Assembly (NCBI GenBank): GCA_001724265.1
Contig: MEDY01000221.1
Location: forward strand, 1 to 48,369
Direction: 5' to 3'
DNA: 48,369 nt
From: Rhizaria sp. SCN 62-66
Taxonomy: Eukaryota
Part shown: piece by piece, positions 1,375 to 43,000 of the stretch
Layout of the letters: every line of letters starts with the position of its first letter
Position numbering within the stretch: position 1 is the stretch's first letter
Made by a program: the position numbers and the translations under genes
Notes under the pieces: generated by a model
What the model was told of the DNA's origin: nothing
Seen by the model: only the letters and a program-made list of their open reading frames with translations
Databases searched by the model: none

Positions 1375-4300
1375 TCAGATTTTGACCGGCGGCGCCTTGT
1401 TCTCGAAGAACCTCACGGTGCCGTCGAAGCCGGCGGTGGCGAAGAGGTGCGTGGTCGCGCGCAGGTCGGCGACCGAGGCCGCGGAGACCTGCACGGCCTC
1501 GAAGGGCACGAACATGGCGCACGTGACGGTGACGGCCTCGGCGCCCGGCTCGCTGGCCTGGAACGACTCATGCGCGTCGACGTGGTTGTCCTTACCGTTG
1601 GCGCCCGTGAGCGCCTCCCACAGGAAGCACGCGCCGTCCTCGGAGCCGCAGACGATGCGCGAGCCGTTGGGCGAGAAGCCTGCGCGCAGCTGCATCTCGC
1701 GGTTCTCAAGCCCCTTATACTTGGACTCGAGCGAGAAGTCCTTGAAGTTGATCAGCCGGATGCGGGAGTCGTTGGTGGTGACGAGCAGGTAGTGCCCGTT
1801 GGGCGAGAACTCGAGTCCGGTGACCTTGCGGCCGTCCTTGAACTGCCCTGAGCGGTTCCGGCAGTCGATCTGAGTGCGGTACTTGAGCTGGTCGGTGCGG
1901 TGCACGACGACCTGGCCCTGTGCCAAGCCGGCCACGGCGTCCGCGCCGTCGGGCGAGAAGGCCGCCGCGGTGATGATGCCGGGCGTCTGCGCCCATTCGA
2001 CGACGCGGTGCTGCGGGACCGACCACACGCGCAGGCGCTTGTCGAAGGAGCCCGAGAGGAAGTAGCGGTCGTCGACCGGGTGGAAGGCCACCGAGGTGAC
2101 GAAGTCGGTGTGCTGGAAGACGAGCACGCAGCGCGGGCGCGAGATGTGCCACAGCCGCACCGTCTTGTCGATCGACGCCGAGAGCAGGAAGGAGCCCGCG
2201 GACCAGGAGAGGTCCACCACGTCGGCCTTGTGTCCCACCCAGACCAGGTACGGCACGGGATGCAGCACGGGCGCCACGGCGGCCGCGGCCGCGGCCGCGG
2301 CGGCCGCGGCGGCGGCGCGCGGCCCCGAGCCCGATCCCGAGCCCGAGGTGCCCGAGGTGGCCGTGGTGGCGGCCGACTGGCGCGAGGTGGCCGAGACCGA
2401 GACCGACGCGCCCGACACCGAGTCCTGTCTCCGCACTCCGGAGACGGAGGCGTCGCGCTCCTGGGCACCGCTGCCGTTGCCGCCGTTGCCGCTGTCACGA
2501 CCGCGGCCGCGCTCCGAGCCCGACACGGAGACCGAGACCGAGGACTGGTTCACGGACGCGGCGCCCGCGCCCGCCGCGCCAGCAGCGGCGGCGGCGGCGG
2601 CGGCGGCCTCGGCGGCGGCGGCGGTGTTTGCGGCCTGCGCGGCCGCGGCGGCGGACATGAAGGGCGCGGCGCTGGTCCTGGCGGCGATCTCGGCCGCGGC
2701 GGGCGTGCCGGCCACGGCCCACACGGCGATAACGCCGTCGTGGCCGGCCGTGGCGAGGAACTGTCCGCACAGCGACCAGCGCATGGTCCAGATGGGCCCG
2801 GAGTGGAAGGGCACCTCCTGGCGCAGCGTCAGCGCAGAGAGCTCGCGCGTACCCTTGCGCTTGCACCGCACCTTGATGCGCTTGCCCGCCGCGCTCCCGC
2901 CGCCGCCGCCGTCGGTCGCGTTGTCCGGCTCGGCGGACTTGCCGCGCAGGCGCCGGAACAGCGACCAAAAGCCCTTGCCGCGCGAGGCCGTCGCCGTGGC
3001 GTCCGCAGAGTTGGCGTCGGCCGCGGAGGCCGCGGTGTCGTTGGCCATCGCGACTGGCACCGAGCCGCGCCGCGCGCCCGCGTCAGCCGCCGCCGCTGCG
3101 GCCGCGGCGGCCGCGCGCGCCTCGGCGGCCTCGGCGGCAGCGGCGGCGTTGTCAGCGGCGCCGATCGCCAGGCGCACCTCTGGGAAGACCTGTGGCGCCT
3201 GGGCCACGGGGCACGCGGCGCCCGAGTCCAGGTCGCGGATCACCACACCCGCGGCCTCGGCCTCGGCGGCGGCGGCGGCGTCGGCCGCGGCGGCCTCAGC
3301 CTCGGCGGCGGTCAGCCCGTGTCCGTGCGCGCGCGCGCGCGCAGCCGAGGCGGCCGAGGTGTGCGACGGAGGCGACCCCGCGCCCGCGGCGAACGCAGAC
3401 GCGGCCGTCGCAGCCGAGCCGGACGGGGGCGAGCGCACGGCGCTAGCGTTGGCGTTGTTGTTGGCGTTGGCGGCGACGGTGGCGCTCAGCATGGCCGCGG
3501 GCGCGGTGCGGTAGCCAGAGCCGGGCCCAGTGGCGCCAGTGCCAGCGCCAGTGCCGACGCCGGCGCCGGCGGTTGCTGTGGTGGAGAAAGCGCCGGCGCC
3601 CGCGCCGGGGGAGACGACCGAGGGCCGGGGAGGCGCCGCGGGCCGCAGCCCCTGGGATTGGACGCTGTGGCCCGGCTGCGGCTGCTGCTGTAAGGGCGGG
3701 GACGGCGACGGGGACGGCGACGCGGTGCCCGGGGCCGTGTTCGGGGTGCTCTGCAGCGGCTGCTGCTGCTGCGCAGCGTGCGCGGCGTGCGCGGCTGCGA
3801 ACGCGGCCGAGGACATGGTTGAGGGCCGCGAGGGCCGCTGCGGTACGCGCGGGGGCGCGGCGGCGGCGGCGGCGTCGGCAGCGGCCGCTGCTGTCTGCGG
3901 GGTGGGAGTGGTGCTGCTGCTCGCACTCGCAGACGGCTGCGACTACTGCTGCTGTTGCTGCGGCTGCGGCTGCGGCTGCGGGTGTTGGTGCACACGCATG
4001 CGCGCCATGCGGGCCGCAAGCAGCGAGTCGATGTGCGCGTCAGAGTCGGCACCAGCGCCAGGAGTACCGTGAGCACCTGTGGCAGCAGAGGCGTTGCGGT
4101 GCGCGAAGGACGCCGGCAGCGATGCCGAGGGCACGTGCCCTGAGGCCCCGCCGCCGCCGCCGGCGGCGGTGGTACTGTTGCGGTGCACGAGGTAGCTGCT
4201 CTGGCCAGACGCCGTGGCAGCGGCAGCAGCAGAGGCTGACGAGGCGGGAGCGAACGGGGAGGCAGCGGCGAAGGCGGCCGCCGTGTTGGAGTTAGGGGCC

Positions 4301-4694
4301 AGCACAGGCCCCGCAGTCGCGGTCGCAGGCGCGGGCGCAGGTGCGGGCGCGGGGGCGGGCGCTGGCGGGGGACTGGAGGAGCTGCTGGCGGCGGCGACGA
4401 CGGCGTCGACGTCGAGCGCGGCCGCGGGGGGCAGGTAGTCGATCTCCTGGGGGTCGTAGAAGGTCTCGTCCTCGTCGTCGTCGTCGTCTGAGGCGGCTCG
4501 GAGGTCAAAAAACAAGGTGAAGAATACAGTATATGTGAGTGATGCAAGTTAAATATGGGCTAAAAAGCATTGTGACGCTACAGTGGCGCATAACGAGTCA
4601 GTGTTGAGCTCCGAGAGATAGCAGGTAATGGAGGGTCAAACGTCGGAGAGATAAGGGACGTACCGATGCCCGCGTGGGGCTGGTGGCTGGACAT
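1375..4694 (-). CDS. WDR44: WD repeat protein 44 (Rab11-binding/rabphilin-11-like). Exons 4694-4664 and 4487-1375; 1047 aa if the in-frame TAG at 3945-3943 is decoded as sense
   Basis: WDR44-type WD40 repeats: KVRCKRKGTRELSALTLRQEVPFHSGPIWTMRWS, GHKADVVDLSWS, FQHTDFVTSVAFHPVDDRYFLSGSFDKRLRVW, RKVTGLEF, LLVTTNDSRIRL, KYKGLEN. Exon 1 MSSHQPHAGI G|gtacgt and acceptor cctcag| are phase-compatible and give the N-terminal acidic FFAT-like motif DDDDDEDETFYDPQE. ORFs 3943..4515 and 1375..3816 are in the same frame. Stop TGA. Confidence 0.9.
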
Positions 4695-5374: not shown

Positions 5375-8314
5375 ATGCCGAACTTGTGGTTGCAGCAGCA
5401 GGCGCCGCGCGACTCGCGAACGCAGCCCACAGTGAGCAAGCTGCTGCAGAAGCGCTCCCGCGCGCCCCTGGCGCCCGACACCGGCGCCTCGGCCGCGTCT
5501 ATCGGCGCCTACGACTCGGACGCGGCTACGTCTCTGCTCTACGGGCAGCCGCACTCGAACGTGCTCGACCTCAGCGCGCTCGCGCCCCCCGCGGCGCCCC
5601 TCTCCCACTCGCAGTCGCTCTCGCTCGACGCCCAGCAGCAGCAGCCGCTGCTGCAGGGCCTGCCCGCGCGCCTCGCGGCGGCGGAGCCCACGCACACGGT
5701 GCGCCTGCTGCCCGCTTTCGGTGCCGGCGCCGGCGCCGGCAGCGGCAGCGGCAGCAGCAGCGCTCGCTCCCGTCTGGGCACGGCCGCCTTCCTTTCCCTC
5801 GCGGGCACTGTGTCTGCGGCCGCGCGCAACCCGCCGCCGCTCCCCGCCACGTGCTCCTTCGTGCCCGTCGGGCTCGTCGACCGCAGCCTTGGCCGCGACA
5901 CCGGTGCCGGCACTGGCAGCGGCAGCGGCAACGGCGGCGGCAGTGGCGAGCAGCGGCGCGCTAGAGATTCCACGACGGTGTCCCATCTGGCCCCGGCGCC
6001 CTCGGCCGCGGCGGTGCCGGCCCTCTCCGCCTTCGCGCCCCCCTCCGCCTCAGCGGCCTCCGCGGCTGCAGCTGGCTCTGCTGCGGGCGAGGGCCACGGG
6101 CAGTCGCACAACCTCTTCGCCCACTCACTCGCCCCCGGCAGCCACTCGGCTACCGCGGCCACGGGTCCCATGGGTGCCGCGGGGGCCGTGAGGCCGCGCG
6201 CGGTGACGATGCGGCTGGCTGAGGACGCGTCGGGCGCGCTGGTGCCCGTCCCAACGTCGCAGCAGCAGCGCCCTTACTCGGGGCCCTATTCAGGGCCTTG
6301 GCTCGGGCTTGGGGCCGGCTTCGGACTGGGACTGCCGCAGACGCCGACGCCGACGCCGGCGCTGGTGGCGTCGCTGCAGTCGCTGCAGCTGCAGGCTCAG
6401 CTCCAGGCACAGGCGCAGGCACAGCTGCAGCTGTCCCCGCATGCTTTGACACAGACACAGACGCAGACACAGTTGCTGCGGCAGGGCGCTAAGCAACAGG
6501 GCTCCAAGCAATGGTCCCGGCAGGAGTCGAGGCCCGGCTCTCAGTCACAGTCGCGGGCGCACTCGCAGGCCCACTCGCGGGCACACTCGCTGACGCAGGC
6601 GCAGCTGCAGCCGCACTCTGGCACCAGCCCCAGCTCAGACTTAAACGCACACAAACAGCAACAACAGCCGCAGCCGCAGCGGCGTCGGTCGCGGCCGCCC
6701 TCTGCCTCATCCTCTGCCGCTGTCGCCGCCGCTGTCGCTGCCACAGGCTCTGAGCCCGCAGTCGCAGCATCAGACAGCCCGCACTCTGCCTCCGCCCCCG
6801 CCGCAGCTCCAGCCGCTGCGGCAGTGGCGAGTCCCGTGCTGCTAAGCGGTGCGCGCGTGCGCCGCGAGCGCGCCGCCGCGGCCGCCGCGCTACACGCGCA
6901 GTCGCAGTCTCTGTGCGACGACGCGCTGTCTGCGCGGCAGGCCGCCGTGGCCGCCGCACTCTCCCGCTCGCTCACCGCACAGCAGCGCGCCAGGGAGGAG
7001 GCCAGCATCTACGCCGCGCGCGCGCGCGCCAGGGCCGCGGAGGCGGCCGCCGCCGCCGCCGCGACGGGGCCCATCAACGGCGTCAGCGCCAGCGCCAGCG
7101 CCAGTGCCAGTGCGGGGACGACGGAGGTCACTGGTGACAGCGGCCACAACAGCAGTGCGAAGCCCGGGTCCCCTGCCGTGTCCGCGCGGACCGCCGCGAC
7201 TGCGCCCGGCGCCTTGCCCGGGATAGCGGTGTCATCGTCGGTGTCCTCGTCGTCGGTTTCCTCGGTGCCGCCGTGGTGGGTGGGCCGGCCGCTGGCGCCG
7301 GGGCTCGCGGCGCCGCCGCCGCGCCAGCCCGTGCGCCTGCCGCGGCCGCGCGTTGAGGTGCGCGTGCCCGACTTCACGCCCGTCACGCGCAACGTGCGCC
7401 GCAGCCAGGGCCAGTGGCTCAAGCGCTCCACAGAGGTCCGTCTAGCGCAACTTGTTTATCGTGAGTTTACAATTGCTCCTCGATCTTGATGTCTTTGGCA
7501 AAGCTTGATTTTCTTATGGTAAATTTACTTGATTTATTTGTTCAATATGCACTGTGTGATTTAATCATCTCACATAACCAATCTCTTCTTCCCACATTTT
7601 TTCCTTTTCTTCCTCCAGGCGACTGCCCAGCTGGTGGCCGCAGTCGCGACGACCGCGGCCGCGGGCGTCGACATCGCTCATGCGACCTCGGTCTCCGCGC
7701 TCTCGCAGTCTGAGCGCTCCCTGGCCGCCGTCTCGGCCCTGGAGACGCGTCTGGCGGCGGCTCGCGAGCACGCTATCGCGGCGGCCGAGGCTCTGGCCGC
7801 CGCCGAGGCCGCCGCGAGCGTCGCCGCGCGCGCCGCGGGCGTGGCGGCCGAGCTGCGCGCCGTGGCCGCCGCCGAGGCCGCGCAGCAGCGCGCCGTCACC
7901 GAGGCCGCGGCGGCGCTGGCGGCGGCGCAGTCTGCGGCGCGCGCGCGCACGGAGCAGGACCTGGGCGCGCGCGAGCTGCTACAGCGCGTGGCGCGGCTCC
8001 GCGCGCGCGGCTACGACGAGCTCCTCGCGGACGCCGCGCACGACGCAGACGGCGCGCGCGCCGACAACGTTGCGGACGCGACGAGTCAGCGCGAGCGCGA
8101 CCGCGTCAGGGAGCAGGAGCAGGAGCAAGCGCAGGCGCAGGGGCAGGGCCAGGGGCGGGCCAGGGGCGGGTTTGGCGTCCCGGCGAGGCTGGGTGCGCTG
8201 CCGCCGACGGTGGCCGTGTCCGCCGTGCGATCCCCGCTTGCGCCCGACTCGCTCACCGTCGCCGACGTTGCGCTCCCCGTCGGCGCTATGGAGCCCCGCG
8301 CGCGCCGCGGATAA
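5375..8314 (+). CDS. Unknown low-complexity protein with a C-terminal predicted coiled coil. Exons 5375-7435 and 7619-8314, about 918 aa
   Basis: ATG at 5375 and GC-rich coding-like sequence. An AT-rich 183-nt intron GAG|gtccgt...ttctcctccag|GCG (phase 0) joins ORFs 5375..7489 and 7634..8314. Stop TAA. No recognisable family. Confidence 0.75.
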
Positions 8315-8957
8315 GCGAGCCAGAGTGACGATGACTTGAAGTGAGTCGTTTTCTCCTTCGCTGTTTATAAGCTACTTAGGTCATGAAAGCTTTGTTTCAT
8401 TGTTTTCACATGTATATAGTTTAATTTTATTTAGAGTTTATCTTGATAGGATGTTTTGTCTCACATTCGTGTTAGGCACAGCCTTTTCTGAGACCGCGTC
8501 TGATGAAACACGAAACAATACACAACTCTATTTGCTTTGTTTTAACGTGAACATGTCCTGTGACGAACTGAAAAGAACTTGAAGCGTGTTCCTCGTGAGC
8601 TGAGACGCGCGGCAAAGTCCATAATTCGCGGTCTCCATGCAAGTGGCCCTCTTACTTTCACTAACACAGACAGGCAAGAGTGCAGCAACTGCCAGCGATG
8701 CAAGGATGCCAGCTAGGCCAAGGCTGAAGGGCGAGTCTCGCTTTCTAAGATTAGTCGCATAGCAATGAGAAGATCGTCAAACTCAATGAAAGGTTGTAAA
8801 TTTGCATTTTAACATAGCTTTCTGGTCGTGATTTTAATAACATGTTCTAGATAGCTCATAATCATGCTTATATCCTACCCTCAATCATGCCACATCATCA
8901 CACCAGACAGCGCTCGCGCGAGGCCTCAACTCGCCCTTGATCGCGCAAAGGATCTCC

Positions 8958-11900
8958 ATGGATTTTTCTTTCCCGCCTACGCCAGTCTCCACGGCTGGCC
9001 AGGACCCTTCTAAGCGGGCTGATGCTGCGTTGCAGCCTCCGTTTCCGCACGCAGCGACGCCGACATTCTTCACAACCGCTGCAGCTGCTCCTGTAATCAC
9101 AACTGCCCCTGCCACCGCGGCTCTGCCTGTCGCTGGCGCGCTACCCCCGATGCCCGCGTCCGCGTCGCAGCTTCCCCCTGCCGCGTTCCCGGCCCCCGTG
9201 TCTTTTTCATTCCGCCAGCCCCCCGCCTCGGCCCCCGCACCCGCGTCCGCCTCGTCCGCCGCCTCGGCCGCCTCCTCCGCCGTAGCACAGGGAGCGGCGA
9301 CGGCGGGCCCCCACGCCGCGCACGCACACTCGCACTCGCTCTCTGGCTCCTTTGCCGGCTCCGTCGCGGGCTCGATCGCCGGTTCGCCCCTCTCAGCCGC
9401 CCCCGCGCCCCCGCAGTCCGCCCTGTCCGTCATCGGCAGCACCGCACCCGCCGGGAATCACACTGCAACCGCTGCCGCTGCGCCTGCTCCTGCCGCCACA
9501 GTCCCAGCTCCAGTCGCCGTCGCTGCAGCTCCTGCATTTGCTCCTGCCACAGCGACCGCAGGCTTGGGCTCAGGCACCGCTGCTGGCACTGCCACTGCCA
9601 CAGGCTCGGGCTCAGGCTCAGGCTCGGGCTCGGGCTCGGCGCTGGCACAGCAGCTGCGCTCGCTCGAACACCGCCTTACCGCCCTCCGCGCCGCCGCCAC
9701 CGCTGCCATCAACAGCAACAGCAACACATCAAGCGCTGTCCCTGCCACTGCCAGTGCTGCGGCGGCTGCGCTCGCGACTGCGCGCGCCGCTGCCGCCGCT
9801 CTGCAGGCCGACGTCGACGCCCTGCGGCTCACCTTCCCCGCGCTCGCCGCCGCCGCCGCCGTGCTCGCCGCGCGCCACAGCGGCGGCGGCGGCGTTGGTC
9901 ACGGCGCGCACGGTGCGAACGGGCAGGACAACAGCGAGTGGGTCCTGTCGCCGACGTCGCCGCCGGCACGGCTCGCGCGCGCCGTCTCGGAGCTGGCCGC
10001 CATCGCCACTCTGCTCAACAGCGGCAGCGCAGCCAGCAATAGCAACAACAACAGCAGCAGTAGCAGCAGTATTATCAGCAGTATTACCAGTCACACCGCC
10101 AGTCGCGGGAGCTACGCGCAGGGCCACAGTGCGATCGCGGTGGAGCTCAGCGACCCGCTGGACGTCTTCGACGCCGCGTTCGCCGCCGGCAACAGCGCAA
10201 GCGGCGCCGGCACTGCTGCTGACGCTGCTGCTGCGAATGCCGCTGCGAGCGCACCGCTTTTGTCGCAAATCGGCTCGGCCCAGCTGCCGCCGCTGCCGAG
10301 TGCGAACAACGCGAGCACGGCCGCAACCGCTGCTGCTGCCGCCGCTGGCGACATCAACAGCTCTAGCCCGCTCGCCAGCGACGCGTCTGGCGTGTTTGCG
10401 GCCCCCCGCGCCCGCAAACCCCTCTCGGCCCGCCCTGCCAACGGGATCGCTGGAACGACTCCAACTGCTGCGGGGGCAGGGAAAGCAAAGGGCTCGTCCC
10501 GGTCCACGCTCGCGGCGGCGCCCGCGGCTGCGCGCACGGACACGGACGCGGGCGCGGAGGCGCTGGCGGCGCTGCGGCGCACGCGGGCGGCGATGCGCGA
10601 GGGGCTTGAGCAAGCCGGGCTTGCGCGGACCGGGCTGGAGGAGTCCACCGACGCGCTGCGCCTGGTGCGCACCGAGGCCGACGCCGCGGCGGGCGCGCTG
10701 GGCGCCTGCGTGGGGCTCGTCAAGGCCAACGAGCGCAAGGCGCTCTGGGAGCAGCGCGCCGTGGTGCTTGCCTTCGCTGCGCTGTGCCTCGTCGCCGGGC
10801 TCGTCATCGCGCGCAGGCTGCTGTGGTTCGCGCAGCCCGCGCTGTGGGCCGCGGGCGGGCTCAAGGGCGGCGTTGCGGCCGCGCTCGGCGCCGCGCTCAG
10901 CGGGTTCGGCCGTGCCGCCGCCAGCGAGGGCGTCGGGGCCGTGCTCCTGGGCAGCGGCGCCACCGCGGGCGCGGGCGCGGGCGCGGGCGTTGGTGTGGAC
11001 GCGCTGGCGGGGCTCAAAGAGCTGCTTGCCGCCAGTGTCCCGCTGCCGCCGCTGCCGCCGCACAGCGGCGGTGCCGTGGGCGTGAACAGCGCGGTGCGCG
11101 GCGGTGTGGAGCTGGAGGCTGTGACTGCCGTCGACGTGCACAGTATGCTCAGCAACGGTGGCAGGAACAACAATCATAACTATGACGAGAACGAGAGCTA
11201 CTATAAGCAGCAGAGGCAATTGGAGCTGGAGCAAGAGCAGGCGCACGCCGCCGCGACTGCTGCCGCTGCAGCCGCTGAAGCTAAGGCTGCCGCTCAAGCT
11301 AAGGCCGCTGCTGAAGCTAAGGCCGCTGCTGGCGCTAAGGCCGCTGCTAACGCTAAGGCTGTTGCTGACGCTAAGGCTGCTGCTGAGGCTCAAGCACAGG
11401 CTCAGGCTCAGGCGCAAGCGCAGGCCCAGGCTCTGGCGCTGGCGCGGGAGCAGGCCGCTGCGAAGGCCGCTGCGGAGGCTGCGGCTGCAGAGGCGGAGGC
11501 GGCTGCTGCTGAGGCGGAGGCCGCGGCGGCTGCAGCGGAGGCTGAGGCTGCCGCCGCTGAGGCCGACGCCGCCGCCGCTGCCGCCGCGCTTTCTACCGCG
11601 AACGCGGCCGTTGCTGCGGGTGGCGCCGGCGTGGTCGAGGTCGAGGCCACTGGGTGGGCCGCGCTCGACGATATTCTGCAGCGAAACGCAAACAGTGCCG
11701 CTGCGGGTGCAAGTGCGAGTACGGGTGATGTGACGAGCAAGGGAGCTGGCGAGGAGGCAAGGTATGTTCCCCGCAGTGTTGATGATAGCAATAATAATAA
11801 CGATGTTAATTCTCATACTCATAATAGTAATCATGATCCCAGTAGCCGCAGTCACGCTCACGACCACGCTCATGACCACGCTCATGACCACGCTCACGAT

Positions 11901-12188
11901 CACGGCCATAGCCACGGCCACGACCACAAGCACAAGCGCCCGCCGCGGCAGCGCACGATTGCCGAGACCGTTGCCGACGCCACCGCAGCTGTTTCCAAGG
12001 CCAACGCCAAGGCTGCTGCTGCTGCTGCTCCGACCGGCGGCGGCGGCGGCCACACGCACGGCCCCGGCTGCAACCATGGTCACGCCCACGGTCACTCCGG
12101 CGGCGGCGGCGGCGGCGCTCACGGCCACAAGGGTGGCGCCGTTCACGCGCAGCCCATCGCCTTCGGCTCCTTCGGGGGCGGGTTCTGA
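8958..12188 (+). CDS. SEC20: Sec20/BNIP1-like ER Q-SNARE with a long lumenal tail (isoform ending in the His-rich exon; possible in-frame intron 11762-11842/11845)
   Basis: Sec20-like SNARE motif plus TM: LAALRRTRAAMREGLEQAGLARTGLEESTDALRLVRTE...LVKANERKALWEQRAVVLAFAALCLVAGLVIARRL (about 10560-10825). First in-frame ATG at 8958. Stop TGA. Confidence 0.75.
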   Translation: MDFSFPPTPVSTAGQDPSKRADAALQPPFPHAATPTFFTTAAAAPVITTAPATAALPVAGALPPMPASASQLPPAAFPAPVSFSFRQPPASAPAPASASSAASAASSAVAQGAATAGPHAAHAHSHSLSGSFAGSVAGSIAGSPLSAAPAPPQSALSVIGSTAPAGNHTATAAAAPAPAATVPAPVAVAAAPAFAPATATAGLGSGTAAGTATATGSGSGSGSGSGSALAQQLRSLEHRLTALRAAATAAINSNSNTSSAVPATASAAAAALATARAAAAALQADVDALRLTFPALAAAAAVLAARHSGGGGVGHGAHGANGQDNSEWVLSPTSPPARLARAVSELAAIATLLNSGSAASNSNNNSSSSSSIISSITSHTASRGSYAQGHSAIAVELSDPLDVFDAAFAAGNSASGAGTAADAAAANAAASAPLLSQIGSAQLPPLPSANNASTAATAAAAAAGDINSSSPLASDASGVFAAPRARKPLSARPANGIAGTTPTAAGAGKAKGSSRSTLAAAPAAARTDTDAGAEALAALRRTRAAMREGLEQAGLARTGLEESTDALRLVRTEADAAAGALGACVGLVKANERKALWEQRAVVLAFAALCLVAGLVIARRLLWFAQPALWAAGGLKGGVAAALGAALSGFGRAAASEGVGAVLLGSGATAGAGAGAGVGVDALAGLKELLAASVPLPPLPPHSGGAVGVNSAVRGGVELEAVTAVDVHSMLSNGGRNNNHNYDENESYYKQQRQLELEQEQAHAAATAAAAAAEAKAAAQAKAAAEAKAAAGAKAAANAKAVADAKAAAEAQAQAQAQAQAQAQALALAREQAAAKAAAEAAAAEAEAAAAEAEAAAAAAEAEAAAAEADAAAAAAALSTANAAVAAGGAGVVEVEATGWAALDDILQRNANSAAAGASASTGDVTSKGAGEEARYVPRSVDDSNNNNDVNSHTHNSNHDPSSRSHAHDHAHDHAHDHAHDHGHSHGHDHKHKRPPRQRTIAETVADATAAVSKANAKAAAAAAPTGGGGGHTHGPGCNHGHAHGHSGGGGGGAHGHKGGAVHAQPIAFGSFGGGF
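11277..11384 (+). repeat. 18-nt coding repeat, 6 x xAKA[AV]A
   Basis: gaagctaaggctgccgct-type units inside the SEC20-like tail. Confidence 0.85.
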
Positions 12189-12636
12189 GGGGCTCTGTGA
12201 CTGGACGGCTGTGGCCGTGGCCGTGACCGTATGAGTGTCGCAATGGCGGTGAGAGCTGTATCACCGTGTTTGCTGCGGCACTGCGATGGTGGCCTCGCGC
12301 TGCCGCTGTGATTGTTGTGGTCTGCACCGACTGTGTCGGCGTTCGCGAGCCCGCCGCGACTGAGAGCGAATGTGTGCGACTGCTATGCGGCACACGTGCT
12401 CACAGCCGCGCGTCACGACTACTTAGAGAAGACGTGTTACCTAGAACGACTCATATTTTCTTTTTTAGAACGATAATAGCAATTTATTTTATAAATATAT
12501 TTCAGTCTGTGTGTATTGATTCAATCACACCTACTTTTTTTTTCACTTCGGAACAAGAGTTGACAAATGCAATGAACTCCAAATCACATAAATTGTTTTC
12601 CTGTGTATCTGAATTGTCTCTTTCCGGTTGCTATAG

Positions 12637-13389
12637 CCGTCATGATGCCAACAGCAAGACTGCTCCGTCTATCAACACTGCGGCGCCCGCAGCTGGCCAC
12701 ACTCCCAGTGACAGCCACAACAACTCTGCGACAGCGCAGGCGATCCCTGCGCCCGCCGCTGCTCCCGCAGTCGCAGTCGAAACAGCTGTGCCGGTAACCG
12801 CTGCGCCCACGGTCCCTGCCGCGCACACGGTCACTGCAGCGCCCGCAGTGGCGATGGAGCCCCCGACTGCAGCGCTTGCCGCCGCCGCGGCAGCAGCAGT
12901 GACGAAGCCCGCAACGTCGGGTTATGGCAACGGCGTAAACGTCGACACTGACGCTGGCGCTGCTGGCGGCAGTGCAAGCGGAGGTGCTGGCGCGCAGTCG
13001 TTGTTGTGGCAGCAACTCGCTTTCCATAAAGACCGCACCGGCGACGACGTCCACAGCAACATCAACAGCCAAACTAGTCACGGACCCACTCACAGTCACA
13101 ATGGTCATGGCCGCAGCACTCAGCAGCACCAGCACTATCTACACCAGCAACATGCACAAGCGCTGCATGCACAGGCTCATGAGGCCCGCCTCCGCGCTCA
13201 CGGTCACTCCGCCCATGGTCATTCTGCTCAGGGTCACTCTGCTCACGGTCAGTCAGCTCATAATCATGCTGCTCGCAGCCACGCGCACCAGCAACAGCTG
13301 CACCAACAGCAGCAACACCAGCAGCAGCAACAGCAGTACTTGTATCAGCAGCAGATGCACCTGCAACAGCAGCAGCAGCAGCGTCAGCT

Positions 13390-13422
<33 letters not shown>

Positions 13423-13555
13423 TCAGCAGCAGGCGCATGCCCAGGCACTGTTGCGGCAACGTCAGGCGCAGGAACACGCGCATCAGCAGCATCAACACCA
13501 CCTGCAGCAACAACAGGCTCTGCGCCACAGCCGAAACCTCAAGATGGAGCTTTAA
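12637..13555 (+). CDS. His/Gln-rich coding exon ending KMEL-stop; probable alternative terminal exon of the SEC20-like gene
   Basis: Coding-like composition starts abruptly after the pyrimidine-rich acceptor tgtctctttccggttgctatag| (12636). It is phase 2, matching the AG|gtatgt donor at 11762. Stop TAA. Confidence 0.55.
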
Positions 13556-27840: not shown

Positions 27841-27952
27841 CCAAGGTATTTCATGATTTCCTAATCACAGCTCCAACTATTGGCAATTTTCTGATACATG
27901 TACAATGTATACTCTATCGGAGCGAAAAGTCGTCAAATCAATCACTATTAGG

Positions 27953-28120: not shown

Positions 28121-28147
28121 TGGCTGGCTGTATGGTCAAGACCGTGG

Positions 28148-32171: not shown

Positions 32172-33487
32172 ATGTACCACTCGATAGATATCACCATTAG
32201 CTCATCTATCACCCCAACAACATTCTCATTGTTCCTGCCAGTTACATATCTTGACACGACGTCTTCCGAGCCTCCACTTGGCGCGTCGCTGGTCTTCCCG
32301 TCCTCGCCGGCCAAGGGCTCTGCCCCAGCTGGGCCCCGCTTCGGCCCCCCGCCGCCGCCCCACGCGCCGCTGTCATTCCCTTCAACTCCCTCGCGCGCCA
32401 CTGCGGCCTCCACACACACATTCGTTCCCCCCGCGCAGCTTGCGCCGGGATCCACGCTGCTTTCACGCACCTCAGCCCCCTCTGCACCAGCCGTATCTGC
32501 TTCGACCCCCTCAGCCGCTGCTGCGACTGCAGCGACTGCAGCTGTGTCGGCCTCAGCGTCGGCGCTCGATGAGGACTTTCCGGTTGTGCCGGACGCCATG
32601 GCGTTTGTGCTGACGCAGCCCTCGCCCCAGCAGCCTACGCTCGCGCTCGCGCCCCACTCGCACTCAGGACCGCATGCGCTCGCTCACAGTGGGCTTATTC
32701 ATGACTCCGACTCCGCAGGCCCGCCGGGCAGTCTGGCGCCGCCGGCCGTCGGCCCCGCGCATTTGTCTGCGCCGAACGCGTTGCACGGTGCATTGCACGG
32801 TGCGACAACGTACGATGCGGTGTACGGCGCGGCCGGCCGCGCCCCGCGTCTGCGCGCCGCCCGTCTCCGCTCCGGCTCCGGCTCCCCCTCGCCAACGCGC
32901 TCGCCGGCGCGGTCGCCAGCGCGCTCTCCATCTCCGTCGCCGTTACAGTCGCCGTCGCCGTCACCAGCGCCAGTGCCAGGACAGGGACCAGCACTGCGCA
33001 GGCACTCGCAGTCGCTGTCATCGACTTCACCATACCAGCAGCAGCAGCACTCTGCGGCGGCCGTGAGCAACGCGGCGTTGGGCGCGGCCATGGGCGAGGT
33101 GGCCACGGCCGCCACCGCCGCCGCCGCCGCGGCCACGCTTGCCGCCGAGTCCATAACCGGCTCACACCGCCGTCGCAACCACCACAAAAACCTCCACAGC
33201 AACAGCAACAGCAACAGCAACAACAGCAACTGCATCAACGGCGCCGAGGCGAGCGCGGCTGTGCGCGCGGCGCGGTCGAGCGCGTCGGGGCGTGCGCTGG
33301 CGCTGCCCGTGGCCGCGGCCATCGCCGCAGCCGCGGAGGCTGCGCAGGCTGCGCAGGCAGGCGGGGCGGCGCAGCCGGGGCTGGCCGAGGCTGACGTCGT
33401 GTTCAAGAGTGACGACGACGATGGCGGCGATATTGATGACGACATCCGCGACTATGACTACGACGATGAGGACGCAGAGCCGCAGCC

Positions 33488-33537
<50 letters not shown>

Positions 33538-36500
33538 CTCAGCCACAGCAGTCTCGCCCCGGCACGGCCTCCGGCTCAGCCGGCGCTGACTCTGGCTCCC
33601 GAGAGCCTACACTGGGCTCCGGACTGGGCTCTGGTGTGGCGCTGCCGCCGCCGCAGTCGCGCTTTCTGTCCACACGCTCCCGCTCCAGGTCGAGATCGCG
33701 GTCGAGGTCGTCGTCGCCAATGCCGCCCTCCCCCGGCCGCGGCGGCCGCGGCGGCACCGGCGACGACGACGGTGATGACGGCGACGGCGGCTTCACTTCG
33801 TCGCCGCCGACGCGCCGCCGCACGCTCGGCGCCGGCCTCGGCGCCGGTCTCCGCGGCCTCGGCGGCAACAGCGGCAGCGCCGACGCCGCCGCGCACGCCG
33901 CATTCGCCAGCACGCTCATCGAGGGCGTCGGCGGCGCGGAGAGCGGCGGCTACATCGGCGGCGGCGGCGGTGGCCACGGCAGTGGTTTTAGCTTCGGCCG
34001 CTTGTCGCCGCGCACGGGACCACAGTCGCTTGCGACCTCGCTCCTGCTCTCACAGTCGCAGGCGCAGGCTCAGGCGCAGGCACAGGTTCAGGCGCAGGGG
34101 CGGTCGCCGCAGGTAGGCTTTGCGGCGTCCCGGCGGCTGACGCTGCCGCTGTCGCTGCCGCTGTCACTGACGGCGGGTTTTCCCTCGTCCCCGACCTCTG
34201 GCCCCTCGTCCGGCCCCGGCTCCCGCCCCGGCTCCCGCCCCGGCTCGGGCCTGCTGGCGTCCTCAGGCTCGGCGCCGGGCTCCGGCCGCGGCGGCGCGCA
34301 CTTCGCGTCCACGCCCCAGGCCTTTGCCTCCACACCGCAGGCCTTCGCGTCGACCCCGCAGGCCTTTGTGTCCACGCCCAAGGCCTTCGCGTCGACGCCG
34401 CAGGCCCTGTCTTCCGGTGCGAGCGGGCCGCCGGCGTTCGCCTCGACCCCGCTGGCCTTCGCGTCGACGCCGCTGGCGCGCGCGGCGCGGGCGCCCGCGC
34501 ACTCACCGCCGCAGCAGCTGCTGCTACGACCGCTGTCGGGGCGCCTGGGCGCGACCGCCGAGGCCGACGAGGAGGCTGAGGCCGGGGCCGGGGCCGAAGG
34601 CAACAGGGGCGGCAGCGGTGGCGACGGCAGGGACAAGCTGCAGCAGCTTCAGCAGCAGCGGCACACGCAGCATTCGCGGCGCCGCAGCAGCGTGTTTGAC
34701 TACGGGCTCACGGCAGCGCACGCGCGCGACGCCACCGAGGCCGCCGCAGAGGCCGCCGCAGAGACCGCTGCTGCTGCGGCCGCTGCTGCTGCTGCGGCGG
34801 AAAGCGCGGTCATGAGGCCGAAGATCAGCAGCAGACGCAGCAGCGGCAGCGCGAGCCCCAAAAGCGACGGCGACGACAAGGCTGCTGAGTACGACTACAG
34901 CCGCGAGGCGGCGTCGGCGCCCGCGGCGCTGCTGGCGCTGGAGGCGCTCGAGGCCCAGGCCGCGCAGCTGCGGCGGCAGCACTTGCAGCGCGCGGCCCTG
35001 CTCGCGCCCGACGCCGCCAGCGACGGCGACCGCCGCGACGGCGGCGAGCAGACGGGCTCCGCTGCCGACGCGGCCGCTGCGGCGCCCGGGTCCGGGGCTG
35101 GGCTCGACTGCGCTGCAACAGCAACCCATGCTGCGACCGCGACGGGGGACTTGCTGAGTCTGCTGTCGCTGCGGACTGCGGGGCGCGCGCCGGCCGCGGA
35201 GGGCGTTGCGCCCGAGCGCGGCTGCGGCCCCGACGTCTGCCAGTTGCCGGAGCACGCTGCGACGACTGCCGTGGCAGCGACGGGTGCGGCGTCTGCCGCG
35301 GCTCATGTCGCGACGTCTGCGCTGGGAGCCGAGGCCAGGGCCGGGCGGCCGCAGTCGGCGGCGCGCGCGACGCCGGGCCTGCTCTGGCGCCAACAGCAGC
35401 AACAGCAACAGCAGCAGCAGTTGCGGCCAGGCAGCGCGCACGCCGCCTCTGGCGCCGTCGCCGGCCCCGTCACCGCCGCTGTCGTTACTGCAGGCGGCGC
35501 CGGCGTCGGTGCCGGTGTGGAGCAGCAAGGCTACCGCGAGGGCTACAGCCGTGAGGGCCGCGCCGCGCTGCGGGCCGCCACCGCGGTCATGGCCACGGTC
35601 ACCGCAGCCAAGGCGCCATCAGCCACTGCCGCCGGTGCTGCCGCTGGTGCTGGTGCTGCGTCTGCCGCGGCACAGGCCCCGGCTGCGGGGCGCGCGCGGC
35701 CAGTGTCGGCGCACCCGCTGTCCGGGCACGTCGCGTCTGTGCGCACGGCGACCGCGACGACGACAGTGACTGCGGCGACTAAAGCGCGGCCAGTCTCCGC
35801 ACACCCTGCCATGTCCGGCCCCGGCCCCGCCAACACGGCCGCCAAGCTGAGCGATAACGCTGACGCAGTCGACGTCGGCGCTGACGCCGACGCCGACGGC
35901 GGCGCTGATGCCGAGGCCGACGCCGCGGCGGGCGCCGCGTTCGCCGCCGCGGCCGCGTCGAGCGCGCTGGCGCGGCGGCCGCTGACCGCCGTCGCGCGGC
36001 GCCGGCTCCCGCTCGGCCCGCACGGACTCGTCGCGCTCTCCCCCGCGGAGGCGCTTGCGGCGGCTGCGGCCGCGGACAAGGCAGCTGCGCGCAGGGCCGA
36101 GCCGCCGGCTGAGGAACAACAACCTCAGCAGCCGCAGTCGCAGCATTCGCAGTTGCGTGCGCGGCCGCACTCTGCGTTTGCGCGCGCGGGCGGCCGCGCC
36201 ACCGTGGCCGCGACGCTGGCCGCGCTCGACCGCGCCCTCTACGGGCCCGCAACAGCAGCAACAGCTGCAGCAGTGTCAGCATCAGCGCCAGCGCCGGCTG
36301 CCACTGCGACTGCGGGGACTGGGACGGGGTTGAGCGCGGCGCGGCGCGTCGAGGCGCGCGTCGACGCCGCGCTGGCCGCCGCGCTGGCCGCCGCCACCGC
36401 CGCTGCCACGGCCGACGGCTCCGTTAGCGGGATGCCCTATCCTGGTGACAGCGACAGCGGCGCAGCCGAGGGCAGCGGGGGCGGCGACGCGCGCGAGTGG

Positions 36501-37922
36501 GCGCGGCGCGTGCTGACCGGCCGCGCGCGCGCGCGTGCGCGCGTCGACTCGGGGCTCGGTCCGCGCGCGCAGCCGCCGGCGCTGCTGGTCTTCGCTGAGG
36601 CGCGCGCGCAGGCGCAGGCGCGCGCGCAGCTGCAGGCGCAGACGGCCACGCAGCCGCGCCTCGCGCCCATGACGCTCTCGCCCTCGCAGCTGCAGGCGCA
36701 GACGCAGCTGCAAACGCAGGCGCTGTCGGCAGCGACCGCGCAGCTGCAGGAGCAGACGCAGGCGCTGGCGCGCGCTCACGCGCTGGCGCTGGCGCAGACG
36801 CGCGCGCGCGTGCAGAGCCCCGCGCCGCTGCTGCTGCTTGGTGGCCCCGGCTGCGGCGGCGGCGGCAGCGGCGGCGACGGCGACCAGGAGCAACGTTGCG
36901 TCATTGACAGCAAGGCTGACATCAAGGGCCACAGCAAGGGCGGTTACGGCAAGGACTTTGAGTCCGCACCGACTGCCGCGAGGTCCAGCGCCGTCACCAG
37001 CGCCCAGCTCGACGCCGCGCAGCTGCAGCTACAGCTGCAGATGCAGCTCAGGCTGCAGCAGCACGCCGCTTCCAAAGCGGCGGCGACTGTACCTGCGGCG
37101 GCTGCAACGAAGCCGGTGTTGCGGCAGCGGCGGCCGGCGTCTGCGATGCCGCCGCGCTCGGCACTCGCCATTTCGCTGGGCCCCGCCCTCATCCCAGGCA
37201 GCACAAACGCGACGGCAGCTAATGCTGCTGCTGCTTCTGCAAGCGCCACTCCTGTCTCAGTCTCTGCGAGCGCTGCCGGTGCCGCCGTGGCCGGTGCGTG
37301 CGCTCAGCGCCCGCAGTCCGCGTCTGTCTGCGGCAGCGTGGCCCGCGGCAGCTTGGCTATCGGCAGCGCGGCCGTCGCCGCGACCGCCGCGACCGTGCAC
37401 GCAGGCGCAGGCGCAGACGCATGCGCTAATGCCACGACGGGGGGCCGGCCGGTCAGCGCCTCGCTCTGGGGCCCGCGCTCCGCTCTACAACTACAGCAGC
37501 AGAAGCCACGCTCTGTAACTAGCTCGCGCCCCAGCAGCTCCCACGTCCACGCTCACATGGACGCGAGCTCCATCCCGACTCGCGTCGCCGCCGAAGGCCA
37601 CGTTCTCGGCCACGGTTGCTGCCGCTACAACGCCGACACCGACACTGACGCCGCCTCAGTTTCCGTCCCTTTCTCTGTTCCCGCTTCTATCGCCCCTGCC
37701 TGTGCCATAGTGTAGCCCCCGCCCCCGCGCGGCGGCGCGGCGGTGCGCGCGCAGCTGGCGGCGCTGGCTGCGGCGGCGCAGCGCTCCGTGGCGGCCGCGC
37801 TGGCGGCCGACTGCGCGCCTCCTGGCGGGCCCGGCGCCGCGGCGGCCGCGGTCGACCTGCCGCGCGCGGCCGAGGGCACCGAGCGCGCGCTCAGGGGCTT
37901 GCTCGAGCCCGGCAGCGCCAAT

Positions 37923-37953
<31 letters not shown>

Positions 37954-38216
37954 GCGGCTTCAGTGGCGGCAGCGGCCAGGGTAACGTGCGTAGTGCCAAC
38001 GGCAGCAGCGTTAACGCGCATATGCGGCATCCGCAGCCGTCTCACCAGTCGCATCAGCAGCTGCAGCAACTGCAGCAGCAGCAGCAGCTTCAGCAGGCGC
38101 AACAGGCGCAGGCGCAGGCGCACGCGTCGGAACGGCGCGCGCTCCGGTCGGCGCTGCGGGCCGAGCTGGCGGGCGAGTTCGCGGAGCTGCTGCGCGCGGA
38201 GCAGGGCGCGCTGTGA
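32172..38216 (+). CDS. Unknown low-complexity RPxSA-repeat protein; up to 2014 aa if the in-frame TAG at 37713-37715 is decoded (start could instead be the ATG at 32598)
   Basis: ORF 32172..37715 continues in frame through TAG CCC CCG... into ORF 37743..38216 with the same codon style. It ends at TGA, where composition drops to AT-rich. Contains 10 RPx[ST]A motifs and FASTP heptads. Confidence 0.7.
33489..33527 (+). repeat. (CAG)13 polyglutamine tract in the CDS
   Basis: Direct reading of the sequence. Confidence 0.9.
34302..34478 (+). repeat. 21-nt coding repeat, 7 copies of F[AV]STP[QKL]A
   Basis: Five tandem copies at 34302-34406 and two more at 34437-34478, with synonymous divergence. 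Confidence 0.9.
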
Positions 38217-38640: not shown

Positions 38641-39305
38641 TCACGCGCCGTGAACCTTGACCTCGCCCTTCTCGCAGATCTTGTACTTGATGAGGAACTC
38701 GGCCGAGTCATGGCGACGGTCGCCGAGCAGCTGGATAACCTCGCTCTGGTCCGTCTTGTCGATCAGGATGGTGCCGTTGGTCGAGAACAGCTGCGCGCGC
38801 GCAAGGGAAAGATGCAACAGGGGAAAGGCGGGAAGAAGTGAGCGAAGGACGGGGACGGACGGGACAGAGCGTAGACAAAGAGTAGAGGGAAGGAAAGAAC
38901 AAGGATACAAAGCGTACCTTGCGCATGTACTTGAGGATCTTGCGGAGGTCGATATCGGTGGCTAGGCCGGCGATGGTGGTGAGGGACTTGTGGCCGTTGC
39001 GCTGCTGGCTGCGGATGTGGACGACCGAGCGCTTCGCCACGGGGGCCTGGTTCGACGTCTTGCTGACGGTCATGCTGTTGTCCGCGAAGGCATCTAAAGA
39101 TCAAAAGGAGGATAAGATCCAGAAGAAGATAGATCGGTCAGCGAAGGATGTAGGGAGTCAGATGGCGTCATTGAAGGTGAAAGAGGGCAGCGCGGAGGAA
39201 GTCTGCCGCGAATGGGCGCAAATTGATCAAGCAACGGGATAAGATCCGTAAATACGTACCGAAGTCGGTGTTCGCAAACACAATGTTGTTGGGCTTGAAA
39301 CTCAT
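38641..39305 (-). CDS. SUI1: Translation initiation factor eIF1/SUI1. Exons 39305-39260, 39093-38918 and 38790-38641, 123 aa
   Basis: The spliced product MSFKPNNIVFANTDFDAFADNS...VHIRSQQRNGHKSLTTIAGL...DLRKILKYMRK|LFSTNGTIL...VIQLLGDRR...FL...VKVHGA matches the SUI1 family. Donors G|gtacgt and AAG|gtacgc have consistent phases. Stop TGA. Confidence 0.92.
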
Positions 39306-39516: not shown

Positions 39517-39918
39517 ATGTCTGCCCCTGCCGAGGTTTCTACCCGCATTCAGGTACGTTTAACAAAATTTGTATTTCTTAGCTTTTTGTTACACCCTACA
39601 AGTACCCTCTTTCTGCTCTCCTATTCACACTCTACTTCTGGCTTCTCTCTTGCTTTCTTTCGTTCTTCTGCCCTTCTTCAGGTCGAGCGCGCTCAGGACG
39701 AGCTGGCGCGCATCCAGGTGGACCTGCTGGAGCACATGTCGGCCGTGATTGCGGAGCGGCCCGCAAACCCTCTGGCGGCGCTGGCCGAGGAGCTGCTGTC
39801 GGCCTCCTCGGCGCCCGAGGCCGCCGAGCTGCTCAAAGCCGTCGACTGGGGCCAGGCACGCGCGCTGCCTCTCGCCGCCGCCGCCTCCGCCGCCGCACAA
39901 CAGCAGCAGCAACACTGA
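39517..39918 (+). CDS. Small Dpy-30/RIIa dimerisation-docking motif protein. Exons 39517-39552 and 39682-39918, 90 aa
   Basis: Pyrimidine-rich 129-nt intron CAG|gtacgt...cttcttcag|GTC. The motif LLEHMSAVIAERPANPLAALAEELL resembles the Dpy-30 pattern (L..L......RP.DP...LA..L). Stop TGA. Confidence 0.7.
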   Translation: MSAPAEVSTRIQVRLTKFVFLSFLLHPTSTLFLLSYSHSTSGFSLAFFRSSALLQVERAQDELARIQVDLLEHMSAVIAERPANPLAALAEELLSASSAPEAAELLKAVDWGQARALPLAAAASAAAQQQQQH

Positions 39919-40000
39919 GCGCGCCAACGGCCACATAAGCGTATTGCTCGCTTGTCCATCAATTCCTCAGAACGCTCTCACTCGGAGCAATTTCTCTCCC

Positions 40001-43000
40001 TCAGAGCTTGGCTTGCGGACTGCAGACCTCTGCCCAGCGCGCGGTTGTGAGCGGCACGTACGCGCCCTTGCCGTGGCCCGCGCCGCCCCACAGGTCCGCG
40101 ACCCACAGTGCGTCGGGCTCAGCTCCCGCTGCGCGCGCCGCCTCGCGGACGCGGTCCGGGTCGGCGCCCTGGTCGCGCAGCTCCGTCTTCTTGTGCTTGA
40201 AGGTCGACGTCACCTCAACCTGGCCCTGCGCCAGCACGCGCACGAACAGAGGCACGGCGTACGCCGGCAGGTGTGCGCGCGCGTGCTTTCCCAGCGCCGC
40301 GAGTGCCGCGGCCGCGCCGCCCGCGGCGGCCGCGCGCGCGGGGTCGAGCGCGACCGCGGCCATGCACGCGCGCCCGTCGCGGCCGGGCACCGCCGCGCCG
40401 TACACGTTGACCTCGGCGACCGCGCCCGAGGGCTCCGCCGAGAGCACCTCCTGGACCTCGTTGGTGCTGACGTTCTCGCCCTTCCAGCGGAACGTGTCGC
40501 CCACGCGGTCGACGAACCACCAGTAGCCGTCGCCGTCCACGCGCAGCAGGTCGCCCGTGCGGAAGTAGCGGTCGCCGCGCCGGAAGACGTCGCGCAGCAC
40601 CTTGCCCGCGCTGCTCGCCGCGTTGCCGTGGTAGCCGGCGTACGCGCGCACGGGGTCCCAGCCCACGATCTGCGCCAGCAGTTCGCCCGCCTCGCCCGGC
40701 GCGCACGGCTCACACAGCCCCGTGTCCTTGTTCCGCACCACGGCGTCCGCGGCGACGTCGTAGCGCGCGAGCCGCATGCCTGAGACCCAGTGCAGCAGCG
40801 AGCCCATGTGCCCCACGGCCCCGCGCGCGGCCACCGGGTCCCCCGCGCGGTGGTGGTGGAAAAGCCCCGCGTTGCCCTCGGTGGCCGCGTAAAACTCGCC
40901 CACCTCGGCCACGCCGAAGCGCGTCTGGAACGGGCCCCAGACCTCGGGCCGCAGCCCGTTGCCGACGGCGAGGCGGACCGCGTGCGCGCGGTCGGCGGGG
41001 CCCGGCGGCGTGGCGAGCAGGTAGCGGCACAGCTCGCCGATGTACTGCACGACGGTGACGCCGTGGCGCGCGCAGTCGGCCCAGAAACGGCTTGCGCTGA
41101 AGCGGCGCGCCAGCACCACGGTGGCGCCGCGCTGCACGCTGGCCATGACGCACACGACCGTCGCGGCCGAATGGTACAGCGGCAGCGGCGTCAGGAAGCG
41201 GTCCTCGGCGCGCAGCCCGTAGTGGGCCGCGAAGAGCGTGCCGCCGCCGTGCAGCCGCGCGTGGCGCACGCACGCCGCCTTGGGCAGCCCCGTCGTGCCG
41301 GACGTGTAGATGAGCAGCGCCGTGTCGTGGAAGCCCACGCCGCGGCGCCACGACCGCGGCGGCGCGGCGCCCGTGAAGGCCGCCGCCGCCCCGCGCAGCG
41401 CGTCGGCCGCCAGCACCGCGTCCAGCGAGTACACCGGCAGCGGCAGCGGCAGCGGCTGCGACGATGCGGCGTCGCTGGTGCTGGTGCTGGTGCCGTCATT
41501 CTTGCTGTCTCTGTCGTTGTCGCGGTCCGTGCTGTTGCGGCTGCTGCCGAGGCCGCCGCGCGCGCGGAGCGTGTCGGCACTCGAGCAGTCCGCGCTGTCG
41601 TTCGGGCCCACAGCCGCATAGAGCGACGCCAACGGCTGCGGGCCCGTGCCGCTGCTGTTGGCGCTGTTGGCGATGTTGGCGCTGCTGCCGCTGCTGCTGC
41701 TGTGGCCCCAGAACACGATGGGCCTGGCGGTGGCCTCCGCGCCGGCCAGGAAGCCCCCGTCGGCGCGGTCGAGGGCGAAGCTCACGGCGCCCCCGCTTCC
41801 ACTGCTGCTGTTGAGGTTGAGATGCTCTCCGCCGTCCGCGGCTGTCGCGGTGGCTGCGGTGGGCGCGGCGCGCAGCACGGCCAGCGGGCGGTACAGCCGG
41901 CCCTCGCGCGCGGCCGCCAGCGCCGCCGATGCGGACGCCGCCGCAGACGCCGCAGACGCCGCAGACGCAGGCGAGCTGAGCGCAGAGCCGGCCGGGGACG
42001 TCGCCGGTGAGGCTGCGGCCGAGTCGAGCAGGGTGGCCACCACCGCGCCCGCCGCCGCCGCCGCAGAGGCCGGCGAGTGCGAGCGTGGACTAGAGCGGGG
42101 CTTGGTGTCGCCGCCGCCGCCATGCTTGCCAGTCATGATCGCCGTCGCCGCGGCGGTTGCGGAGGCCTCCACCGTGCTGCCGCTGTTGCTATTGCGACTG
42201 ATCACACCGCTACAGCTGGCTGTGTATGTGCTGGCTGGCGCCGCGCGCGCCGCGGCGGGCGCGGCGACTGTGGGCTCCGGCAGCTGGGGCAGCAGCTCGT
42301 CGTCGTTGTCGGCGTCGTTGTCGACCTCGAGCCCGCTGAACGCGCCCGCGCGCACGGCAGCGGCCGCGCTTGCCGCAGCCGCGCTCCCGCTCCCGCTCCC
42401 ACTGCCGCTGTGGCTGCTGCTGCTGTAGCTGCTGCTGCTCCTGAGCGCCGCGTTTACTGCCGCTGCGGCCGCGGCGACGCGCGCCTTGCCCGCCGCGTCC
42501 GCGGGCGCGGGCGGCCCGATGCCCTTGAGTGCCGCCTCGCGGGCCCGCTGAGTAGCCCGCTGTGTCGCTCGCTGTGTGGCCCCCGCGGCGCCGCCCTGCG
42601 GCAATGCCTCCTCCGCGTCAGCGTCGGCGTCAGCGCCTGAGTCCAAAGCAGCTGCGGCGGCGGCGGAGGTGGTGGGCTGGGCGCGGAGGGCGCGCGCTGC
42701 GGCGGCCGCGGTAGTGGCGACGGCGGTGGCGGCCTCGACCACGGCCGCGGCGCGCGGGCCCGCGGCGGCGTCGCGCGCGCGCGTGGCCGCCGCCAGCGCG
42801 TCGATCGTCGCCGCGGCCACTGCGGCAGCTGCAACGGCCTCGGCCTCAGCGTCAGCGTCGGCATTGGCGTCGCCGCTGGCGCGAGCGGCGGGCAGGGGCG
42901 CGCGGCGCGGCGCGATGTCGTTGCAGCCGTACACAGCGACGTCGACACCACCGGCAATGCTGTTGCTGCTGTTGCTGAGCTGCGGCCCCGAGGAAAGCTC

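Follow-up and report, generated by a model that had tools for sequence, protein, structure and literature searches.

In nearly every case, UAG and UAA change meaning as a pair, and the few lineages in which UAG alone has been reassigned have all been seen late, when UAG was already a common codon. Nuclear reassignments restricted to UAG are those of the rhizarian exLh, in which UAG encodes leucine and 384 UAG codons were found in 71 genes, and of Iotanema spirale, in which it encodes glutamine (Panek et al. 2017, PMC5304391). Further UAG-specific changes are reported for phyllopharyngean ciliates, Protocruzia tuzeti and the green alga Scotinosphaera (UAG = Ser) (McGowan et al. 2024, PMC11687900), and one ciliate is reported to read UAA as lysine and UAG as glutamate (PMC10553269); these cases show that UAG can change independently of UAA in several unrelated lineages. 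We analyzed a single metagenome contig of Rhizaria sp. SCN 62-66 (MEDY01000221.1, assembly GCA_001724265.1), 48,369 nucleotides (nt) long and referred to below as the window, in which two genes each carry one TAG in frame and none of the 12 gene ends is a TAG. A first-pass annotation of this DNA had described UAG-only changes as rare, with exLh and Iotanema as examples, which PMC5304391 and PMC11687900 bear out, and had interpreted the window as a possible further case.

The first TAG (3943-3945, minus strand) falls at residue 195 of about 1050 in a WDR44-like gene (1375..4694, minus strand) that ends on TGA, and stands in the context CAG CAA CAG CAG CAG TAG TCG CAG, directly after five glutamine codons. 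The gene is modeled with a first exon at 4694-4664 that supplies the ATG, an intron at 4663-4497 (167 nt, GTACGT..AG, guanine plus cytosine (GC) content 0.46) and a second exon at 4496-1375. An acidic FFAT-like motif opens exon 2 and is followed by the TAG, an IRDLDSG motif and a WD40 propeller, the latter recognized by Pfam as WD40 and beta-propeller matches at residues 768-991, such that the FFAT-like motif and the propeller flank the TAG on opposite sides. Human WDR44 also carries an FFAT motif. Of five homologues examined, three (P0002, P0004, and P0006) have an N-terminal FFAT-like motif followed by WD40 in one chain, while P0003 lacks the motif and P0001, from a sister species, was called only from an internal methionine. 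Since homologues hold motif and propeller in one chain, a stop at residue 195 would remove everything conserved. The next ATG lies 43 codons beyond the TAG, at 3816, and in public protein sets the gene is called only from this ATG; an exact look-up of the products of both TAG-containing genes from their first ATGs returned no identical entry in the protein collection. One ENA-derived entry, P0005, is a chimera, in which residues 1-169 match the WDR44-like protein exactly from the ATG after the TAG onward (3310-3816), whereas the remainder corresponds to P0144, the product of a different gene of this organism that lies on a 112-kb contig. The join is inside an Ala-rich repeat. This indicates that assemblies of this organism can misjoin at low-complexity repeats.

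The second TAG (37713-37715, plus strand) lies at residue 1848 of about 2014, if the ATG at 32172 is the start, in an orphan gene called RPxSA (32172..38216, plus strand), in the context ATA GTG TAG CCC CCG, where no glutamine codon flanks it. The body of the gene upstream of the TAG (32172..37712) matches no Pfam family, and downstream the same frame runs on for 166 codons (37716..38216) to a TGA at 38214-38216, with the first ATG more than 100 codons past the TAG and the AT-rich spacer beginning only after 38216. A search with the last 666 residues, which span the TAG, gave no match among 1.84 billion representative proteins, and no Pfam family was found for the gene as a whole; RPxSA is a lineage-specific low-complexity protein. 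Its 2014 residues include at least eight R-P-x-S-A motifs, a FASTPQA repeat block and polyglutamine (polyQ) runs.

Coding character persists across both sites. In the 150 nt after each TAG, the GC content remains high, at 0.78-0.89, and the gene's own frame scores best, at 1.26 bits per codon for the first TAG and 1.55 for the second, after which GC is 0.82-0.89; over 300 nt downstream of the first TAG, the GC content is 0.78 and the same-frame coding score is again the highest of the three. The 12 TGA and TAA ends, by contrast, are followed by 150 nt of GC 0.33-0.68, and at ten of them all three frames have coding scores below zero. The exceptions, where the Dpy-30-like and FATP-type genes converge and abut, are followed by GC 0.61-0.68 over 150-300 nt, and there the same-frame score is negative and the other two frames are positive. 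Scoring of the pieces cut off by the TAGs relative to the five wrong frames gave, in the frame of the gene, +0.49 for 3946-4500 (minus strand), before the first TAG, and +0.29 for 37716-38213 (plus strand), after the second, with all other frames at zero or below. Both genes are otherwise free of stops and frame breaks over 1040 and 2015 codons, indicating that they are not old pseudogenes. Coding sequence thus continues in frame after both TAGs (2 of 2) and after none of the 12 TGA or TAA ends (post hoc Fisher p = 0.011). To judge from the sequence, both TAGs are internal to coding regions, and they are very probably either translated through or very recent lesions.

The window was inventoried for genes and their ends. 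Thirteen genes were found, 12 of which have their 3′ end inside the window while the thirteenth runs off its end, and the 12 terminal codons are TGA in eight cases, TAA in four and TAG in none, which confirms the count of the first-pass annotation. A six-frame scan of the window revealed no gene beyond the 13 and none ending in TAG; all TAG-ending open reading frames (ORFs) were either antisense to longer, better-scoring ORFs or within a 5′ leader. Three of the gene ends are anchored, those of the WDR44-like, eIF1, and FATP genes: the first coincides with the end of the sister protein P0001, and the latter two finish in the C-termini ..KVHGA and ..AKL. The probability of seeing no TAG among 12 ends is 0.28, 0.069 or 0.014 if TAG makes up 10%, 20% or 30% of terminators, a result that is weak alone. 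The earlier claim that the window holds only two in-frame TAGs also held, across 12,403 codons of securely framed exons, or about 12,700 once small exons are added. A count of two is comparable to those of the rarest sense codons here (TTA, 3; ATA, 4). The base following the codon (+4) is a pyrimidine at both TAGs (T and C) and a purine at 9 of the 12 real stops.

Given these observations, we lean, tentatively and at somewhat less than an even chance, to the reading that UAG is decoded throughout this organism and avoided as a terminator. UAG would then no longer be an ordinary terminator, termination would be left to UGA and UAA, and both UAGs would be translated through to yield full-length WDR44-like and RPxSA proteins. 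The most likely agent would be a UAG-reading tRNA, either one with a dedicated CUA anticodon or a strongly competing near-cognate, with weakened recognition of UAG by eRF1 possibly helping. The inserted amino acid would perhaps be glutamine, because the first TAG ends a run of five glutamine codons. Decoding of UAG must, on this reading, be inefficient or recent, since UAG occurs in frame no more often than the least used sense codons. A more specific and rather doubtful proposal is that a deep-branching GC-rich wastewater eukaryote is now in the early or ambiguous phase of reassigning UAG, with UAG abandoned as a terminator and decoded, probably as glutamine, at about one per 6,000 codons, while UAA and UGA still terminate.

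The interpretation made in the first-pass annotation, an independent or early-stage UAG reassignment, is thus partly supported: the position of both TAGs inside coding sequence and their absence from the 12 ends speak for it, whereas an amino-acid reading of UAG is an inference. Several observations weigh against decoding. In-frame TAG is depleted by about 98%, as a stop codon would be (two seen against about 112 expected from position-specific base frequencies over the 12,403 codons), and falls well short of an appreciable sense-codon frequency when set beside the exLh figure (PMC5304391). In these genes, which are rich in GC at third codon positions (GC3), 71-74% of single-base nonsense changes give TAG, so that both stops being TAG is expected under plain mutation (p ~0.5), and the first TAG sits in a polyQ tract, where CAG-to-TAG is the simplest mutation. 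Both TAGs stand in low-complexity, non-conserved segments in which no aligned residue identifies an amino acid, and the RPxSA gene has no detectable homologue. TAA ends four of the 12 genes, though GC pressure should remove TAA before TAG. The sample is one contig with 12 terminators, for which a TAG share of 10% gives the probability of 0.28 mentioned above, and TAG decoding cannot be proven from one contig. Neither ARAGORN nor Rfam found a tRNA gene in the window, no other Rfam family was found there, and eRF1 is not among the genes it encodes. Misassembly at Ala-rich repeats does happen in this organism, as the chimera P0005 illustrates. Contigs from four of 14 sequencing runs (X3-X6) were compared over positions 1-20000, where low-complexity matches from other organisms swamped the result and 3845-3993 was treated as a repeat. 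No variant was listed at 3943-3945, but the coverage of these bases was not given, and the comparison neither confirms nor refutes the first TAG. Finally, a glutamine-rich context such as that of the first TAG raises readthrough even under a standard code. Yeast tRNA-Gln reads through premature stops in a Q-rich domain with an efficiency of 5-7%, which suffices for normal growth, and the effect is strongest with glutamine codons on both sides of the stop (Leslie et al. 2026, preprint, PMC13192750).

Many of these points favor an account in which the code is standard and the TAGs are either nonsense alleles of recent origin or mistakes in the consensus of a low-coverage metagenome assembly, tolerated in disordered low-complexity regions either through a few per cent of near-cognate readthrough by tRNA-Gln or because loss of the downstream part is not lethal, with the absence of TAG ends put down to a small sample. 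This account, which we consider unlikely but deserving of real weight, draws on the mutational bias toward TAG, on the first TAG closing a polyQ run as CAG CAG TAG, on the stop-like depletion, on the misjoin at a repeat, on the full-length protein and wild-type growth of the yeast strains (PMC13192750), and on a contig depth of only about 5-7 in independent runs. Against it, two broken genes in 13 is a high rate; a stop results from 2.1% of random single-base changes, and two in about 37 kb of coding sequence would need an unusually high error or mutation load, while no other stop or frame break appears in the 12,403 codons. The second TAG, moreover, has no flanking glutamine codons, and an absence of TAG from 12 ends is itself unlikely (0.014-0.069) at the usual share of 20-30%. 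P0005 starts at the first ATG after the first TAG, which would fit the same stop being present in that assembly, a weak point against this account. Programmed, gene-specific readthrough under a standard code, with leaky UAGs at two sites giving short and long isoforms as in animal and fungal readthrough genes, would suit the second TAG, which is near the 3′ end and followed by an extension with coding signal, and would suit the pyrimidine at +4 of both TAGs, C being the leakiest base at that position among those cited in PMC13192750. At the first TAG, however, a short isoform would hold none of the conserved domains except the FFAT-like motif, neither TAG is followed by RNA structure in excess of what composition accounts for (z = −1.89 and +0.45 relative to shuffled sequences), and no known readthrough motif was seen at the two sites, leaving this explanation improbable.

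We judge it equally improbable that both TAGs simply terminate, that is, that an FFAT gene ends at the first TAG and a separate WD40 gene starts from the ATG at 3816, and that RPxSA ends at 37715 with a relic or separate piece behind it, which would make TAG the end of 2 of 14 genes, a normal share. The ATG 43 codons after the first TAG was used by the gene caller behind P0005, and the predicted sister protein P0001 also lacks the N-terminal part. Yet the downstream pieces are in frame with the upstream ones and joined to them without a spacer, whereas the other gene boundaries are AT-rich spacers or convergent overlaps; the piece after the second TAG lacks an ATG for over 100 codons; and homologues carry the FFAT-like motif and WD40 in one protein. 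Least probable by far is that the TAGs are spliced out as part of short introns that are GC-rich and keep the frame. The first TAG is indeed covered by three GT..AG spans that preserve the frame (105-201 nt, GC 0.69-0.75), but their GTGTGC donors are weak, while the recognized introns of the window measure 129-167 nt, have a GC content of 0.34-0.46, use GTACGT, GTACGC or GTGAGT donors, and end in pyrimidine-rich stretches. No frame-keeping span with a consensus-like donor was found over the second TAG, and the coding signal is continuous across both sites. From their sequence features, introns over the TAGs thus appear unlikely.

The contig is gene-dense and eukaryotic, with coding stretches of 70-78% GC (GC3 ~0.9), AT-rich spacers of 24-50% GC, and encoded proteins rich in Ala-, Gln-, Ser-, and Gly-rich low-complexity runs. 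Contigs on record for the window's FKBP protein reach 48,324 bases at most, which makes it likely that the window is a complete contig. Sampled words of 1300-4800 were present at 0.92-0.99 in three metagenome runs of bioreactors or wastewater, belonging to two studies, and a polyA metatranscriptome gave a partial match to the same interval; the source is an uncultured GC-rich wastewater eukaryote. Its named protein matches, in animals, plants, green algae, and fungi, are at best 30-49% identical, indicating that it has no close sequenced relative. A sister species is represented among unnamed metagenome proteins, by P0001 (89% identical over the WD40 domain) and by P0025 (69% identical to the FKBP of the window); the FKBP search returned the window's own protein, this sister, and next matches at 30-36% in animals and plants. 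Searches with the Frizzled-region protein found no match, and an Atlas search for the lineage found generic AMP-binding clusters only. The WD40-domain query gave 90 pattern matches in metagenome contigs, which reduced to one locus (L001) that was 38% identical and uninformative, as well as 66 pattern matches in genome contigs and eight in viral contigs, with no relative in either. A repeat search of the window for an organism-specific element recovered low-complexity coding repeats only. A second, diverged version of 1614-1761 and 18144-18402 was observed in contigs of runs X4 and X5, with about 19 differences per 150 nt of the WD40 region, which points to a related strain or the sister species co-occurring in the study of these runs.

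The remaining genes are described in order of position. The gene starting at 5375 (5375..8314, plus strand) had been listed as ending on TAA; this stands if it is spliced to an exon at 7619-8314 (TAA 8312-8314), but it may instead end at the TGA at 7487-7489, and neither end is a TAG. Its sole donor close to the consensus, GTGAGT at 7461, does not match the phase of that exon, for which GTTTAT at 7454 would be the donor in phase. Instead, the locus may hold a separate small gene that ends on the TAA and has a ten-codon first exon, its ATG overlapping the TGA (TGATG, 7487-7491) and its donor being GTAAAT at 7519. A Sec20-like gene (8955..12188, plus strand, ending on TGA) has a weak Pfam match of 20.8 bits, below the cut-off of 27 bits, and at 11900-12188, after a long Ala/Glu/Lys-rich region, a His-rich tail of HDHAHDH.. 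and GHAHGH.. repeats that is unusual for a tail-anchored SNARE-like protein. It is followed by a Q-rich gene ending ..KMEL (12572..13555, plus strand, stop TAA) and by a small gene with a presequence-like N-terminus (14081..14836, minus strand, TGA). A Frizzled-like receptor with Fz and Frizzled seven-transmembrane (7TM) domains occupies 15601..24024 (plus strand, TAA). A third TAG, at 15589-15591, lies in frame three codons 5′ of the first ATG of this gene. The 76-codon ORF before it (15361-15600) has a coding score of +0.19 per codon and no ATG; it is probably a GC-rich 5′ leader, with an upstream exon as the alternative.

Next is the last exon of an FKBP-TPR gene (25402..26643, minus strand, TAA). 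The sister protein, in genomic and transcript-like entries that all share the same end (P0025, P0145, and P0146), terminates in ..NFSL, 53 residues short of the end of the window orthologue, whose extra 53 residues (25402-25563) form a low-complexity tail. Between this gene and an ARP8-like actin-related gene (28148..31702, minus strand, TGA), the spacer at 27301-27900 is extremely AT-rich, at 24% GC compared with 38-50% in other spacers. Beyond RPxSA, an eIF1 (SUI1) gene (38641..39305, minus strand) has three exons and two introns with GTACGT and GTACGC donors and ends ..KVHGA, TGA, which we take to be the usual eIF1 C-terminus. The Dpy-30-like gene (39517..39918, plus strand, TGA) contains an intron at 39553-39681 (GTACGT..CAG, GC 0.40), and the last exon of a FATP-type acyl-CoA synthetase (40001..43273, minus strand) ends ..AKL, TGA, the AKL (40001-40012) presumably resembling a peroxisomal targeting signal.

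Full-text literature searches, supplementary files excluded, turned up no published UAG change in a eukaryote that is GC-rich or comes from wastewater. If UAG is indeed decoded here, the case would differ from every UAG-only reassignment described (PMC5304391, PMC11687900), both in the rarity of the codon and in its genome, which is GC-rich and not that of a ciliate. It would reveal which step came first, the terminator being lost before the codon spread, and would represent a living intermediate such as the "ambiguous intermediate" and "unassigned codon" models predict, in a non-ciliate whose high GC content means that mutation pressure cannot account for the disappearance of UAG. Through the tRNA set, eRF1, and the efficiency of readthrough, rival models of how codes change could then be tested. 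There is also a practical consequence in that gene callers split or truncate such genes, as seen with the WDR44-like gene called from the ATG after its TAG. If, instead, these are only two tolerated nonsense codons, the finding is an ordinary one.

Ambiguous stop/sense codes, in which a stop is read through or terminates depending on context, exist in Condylostoma, Parduczia, karyorelict ciliates, and Blastocrithidia, and may serve as a model for an intermediate state here. In-frame stops are frequent under those codes, unlike here, and position relative to the 3′ end of the mRNA decides how they are read. The yeast readthrough system resembles the window in that five glutamine codons precede the first TAG, within an mRNA that is Q-rich, and the mRNAs of both TAG-containing genes have polyQ runs. 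In contrast to the QXQ arrangement (PMC13192750), the first TAG is followed by serine and then glutamine and the second has no glutamine flanks, and yeast uses the standard code. The lineages with further UAG-specific changes (PMC11687900, PMC10553269) are mostly AT-rich ciliates, in contrast to the GC-rich window with its ordinary spliceosomal introns. As in exLh and Iotanema (PMC5304391), UAG occurs here inside genes whose true ends are other stops, and UAA is still a stop. In those two organisms, UAG is common and stands at conserved leucine or glutamine positions, allowing its meaning to be inferred statistically, whereas the window holds two in roughly 12,400 codons, both in non-conserved low-complexity segments.

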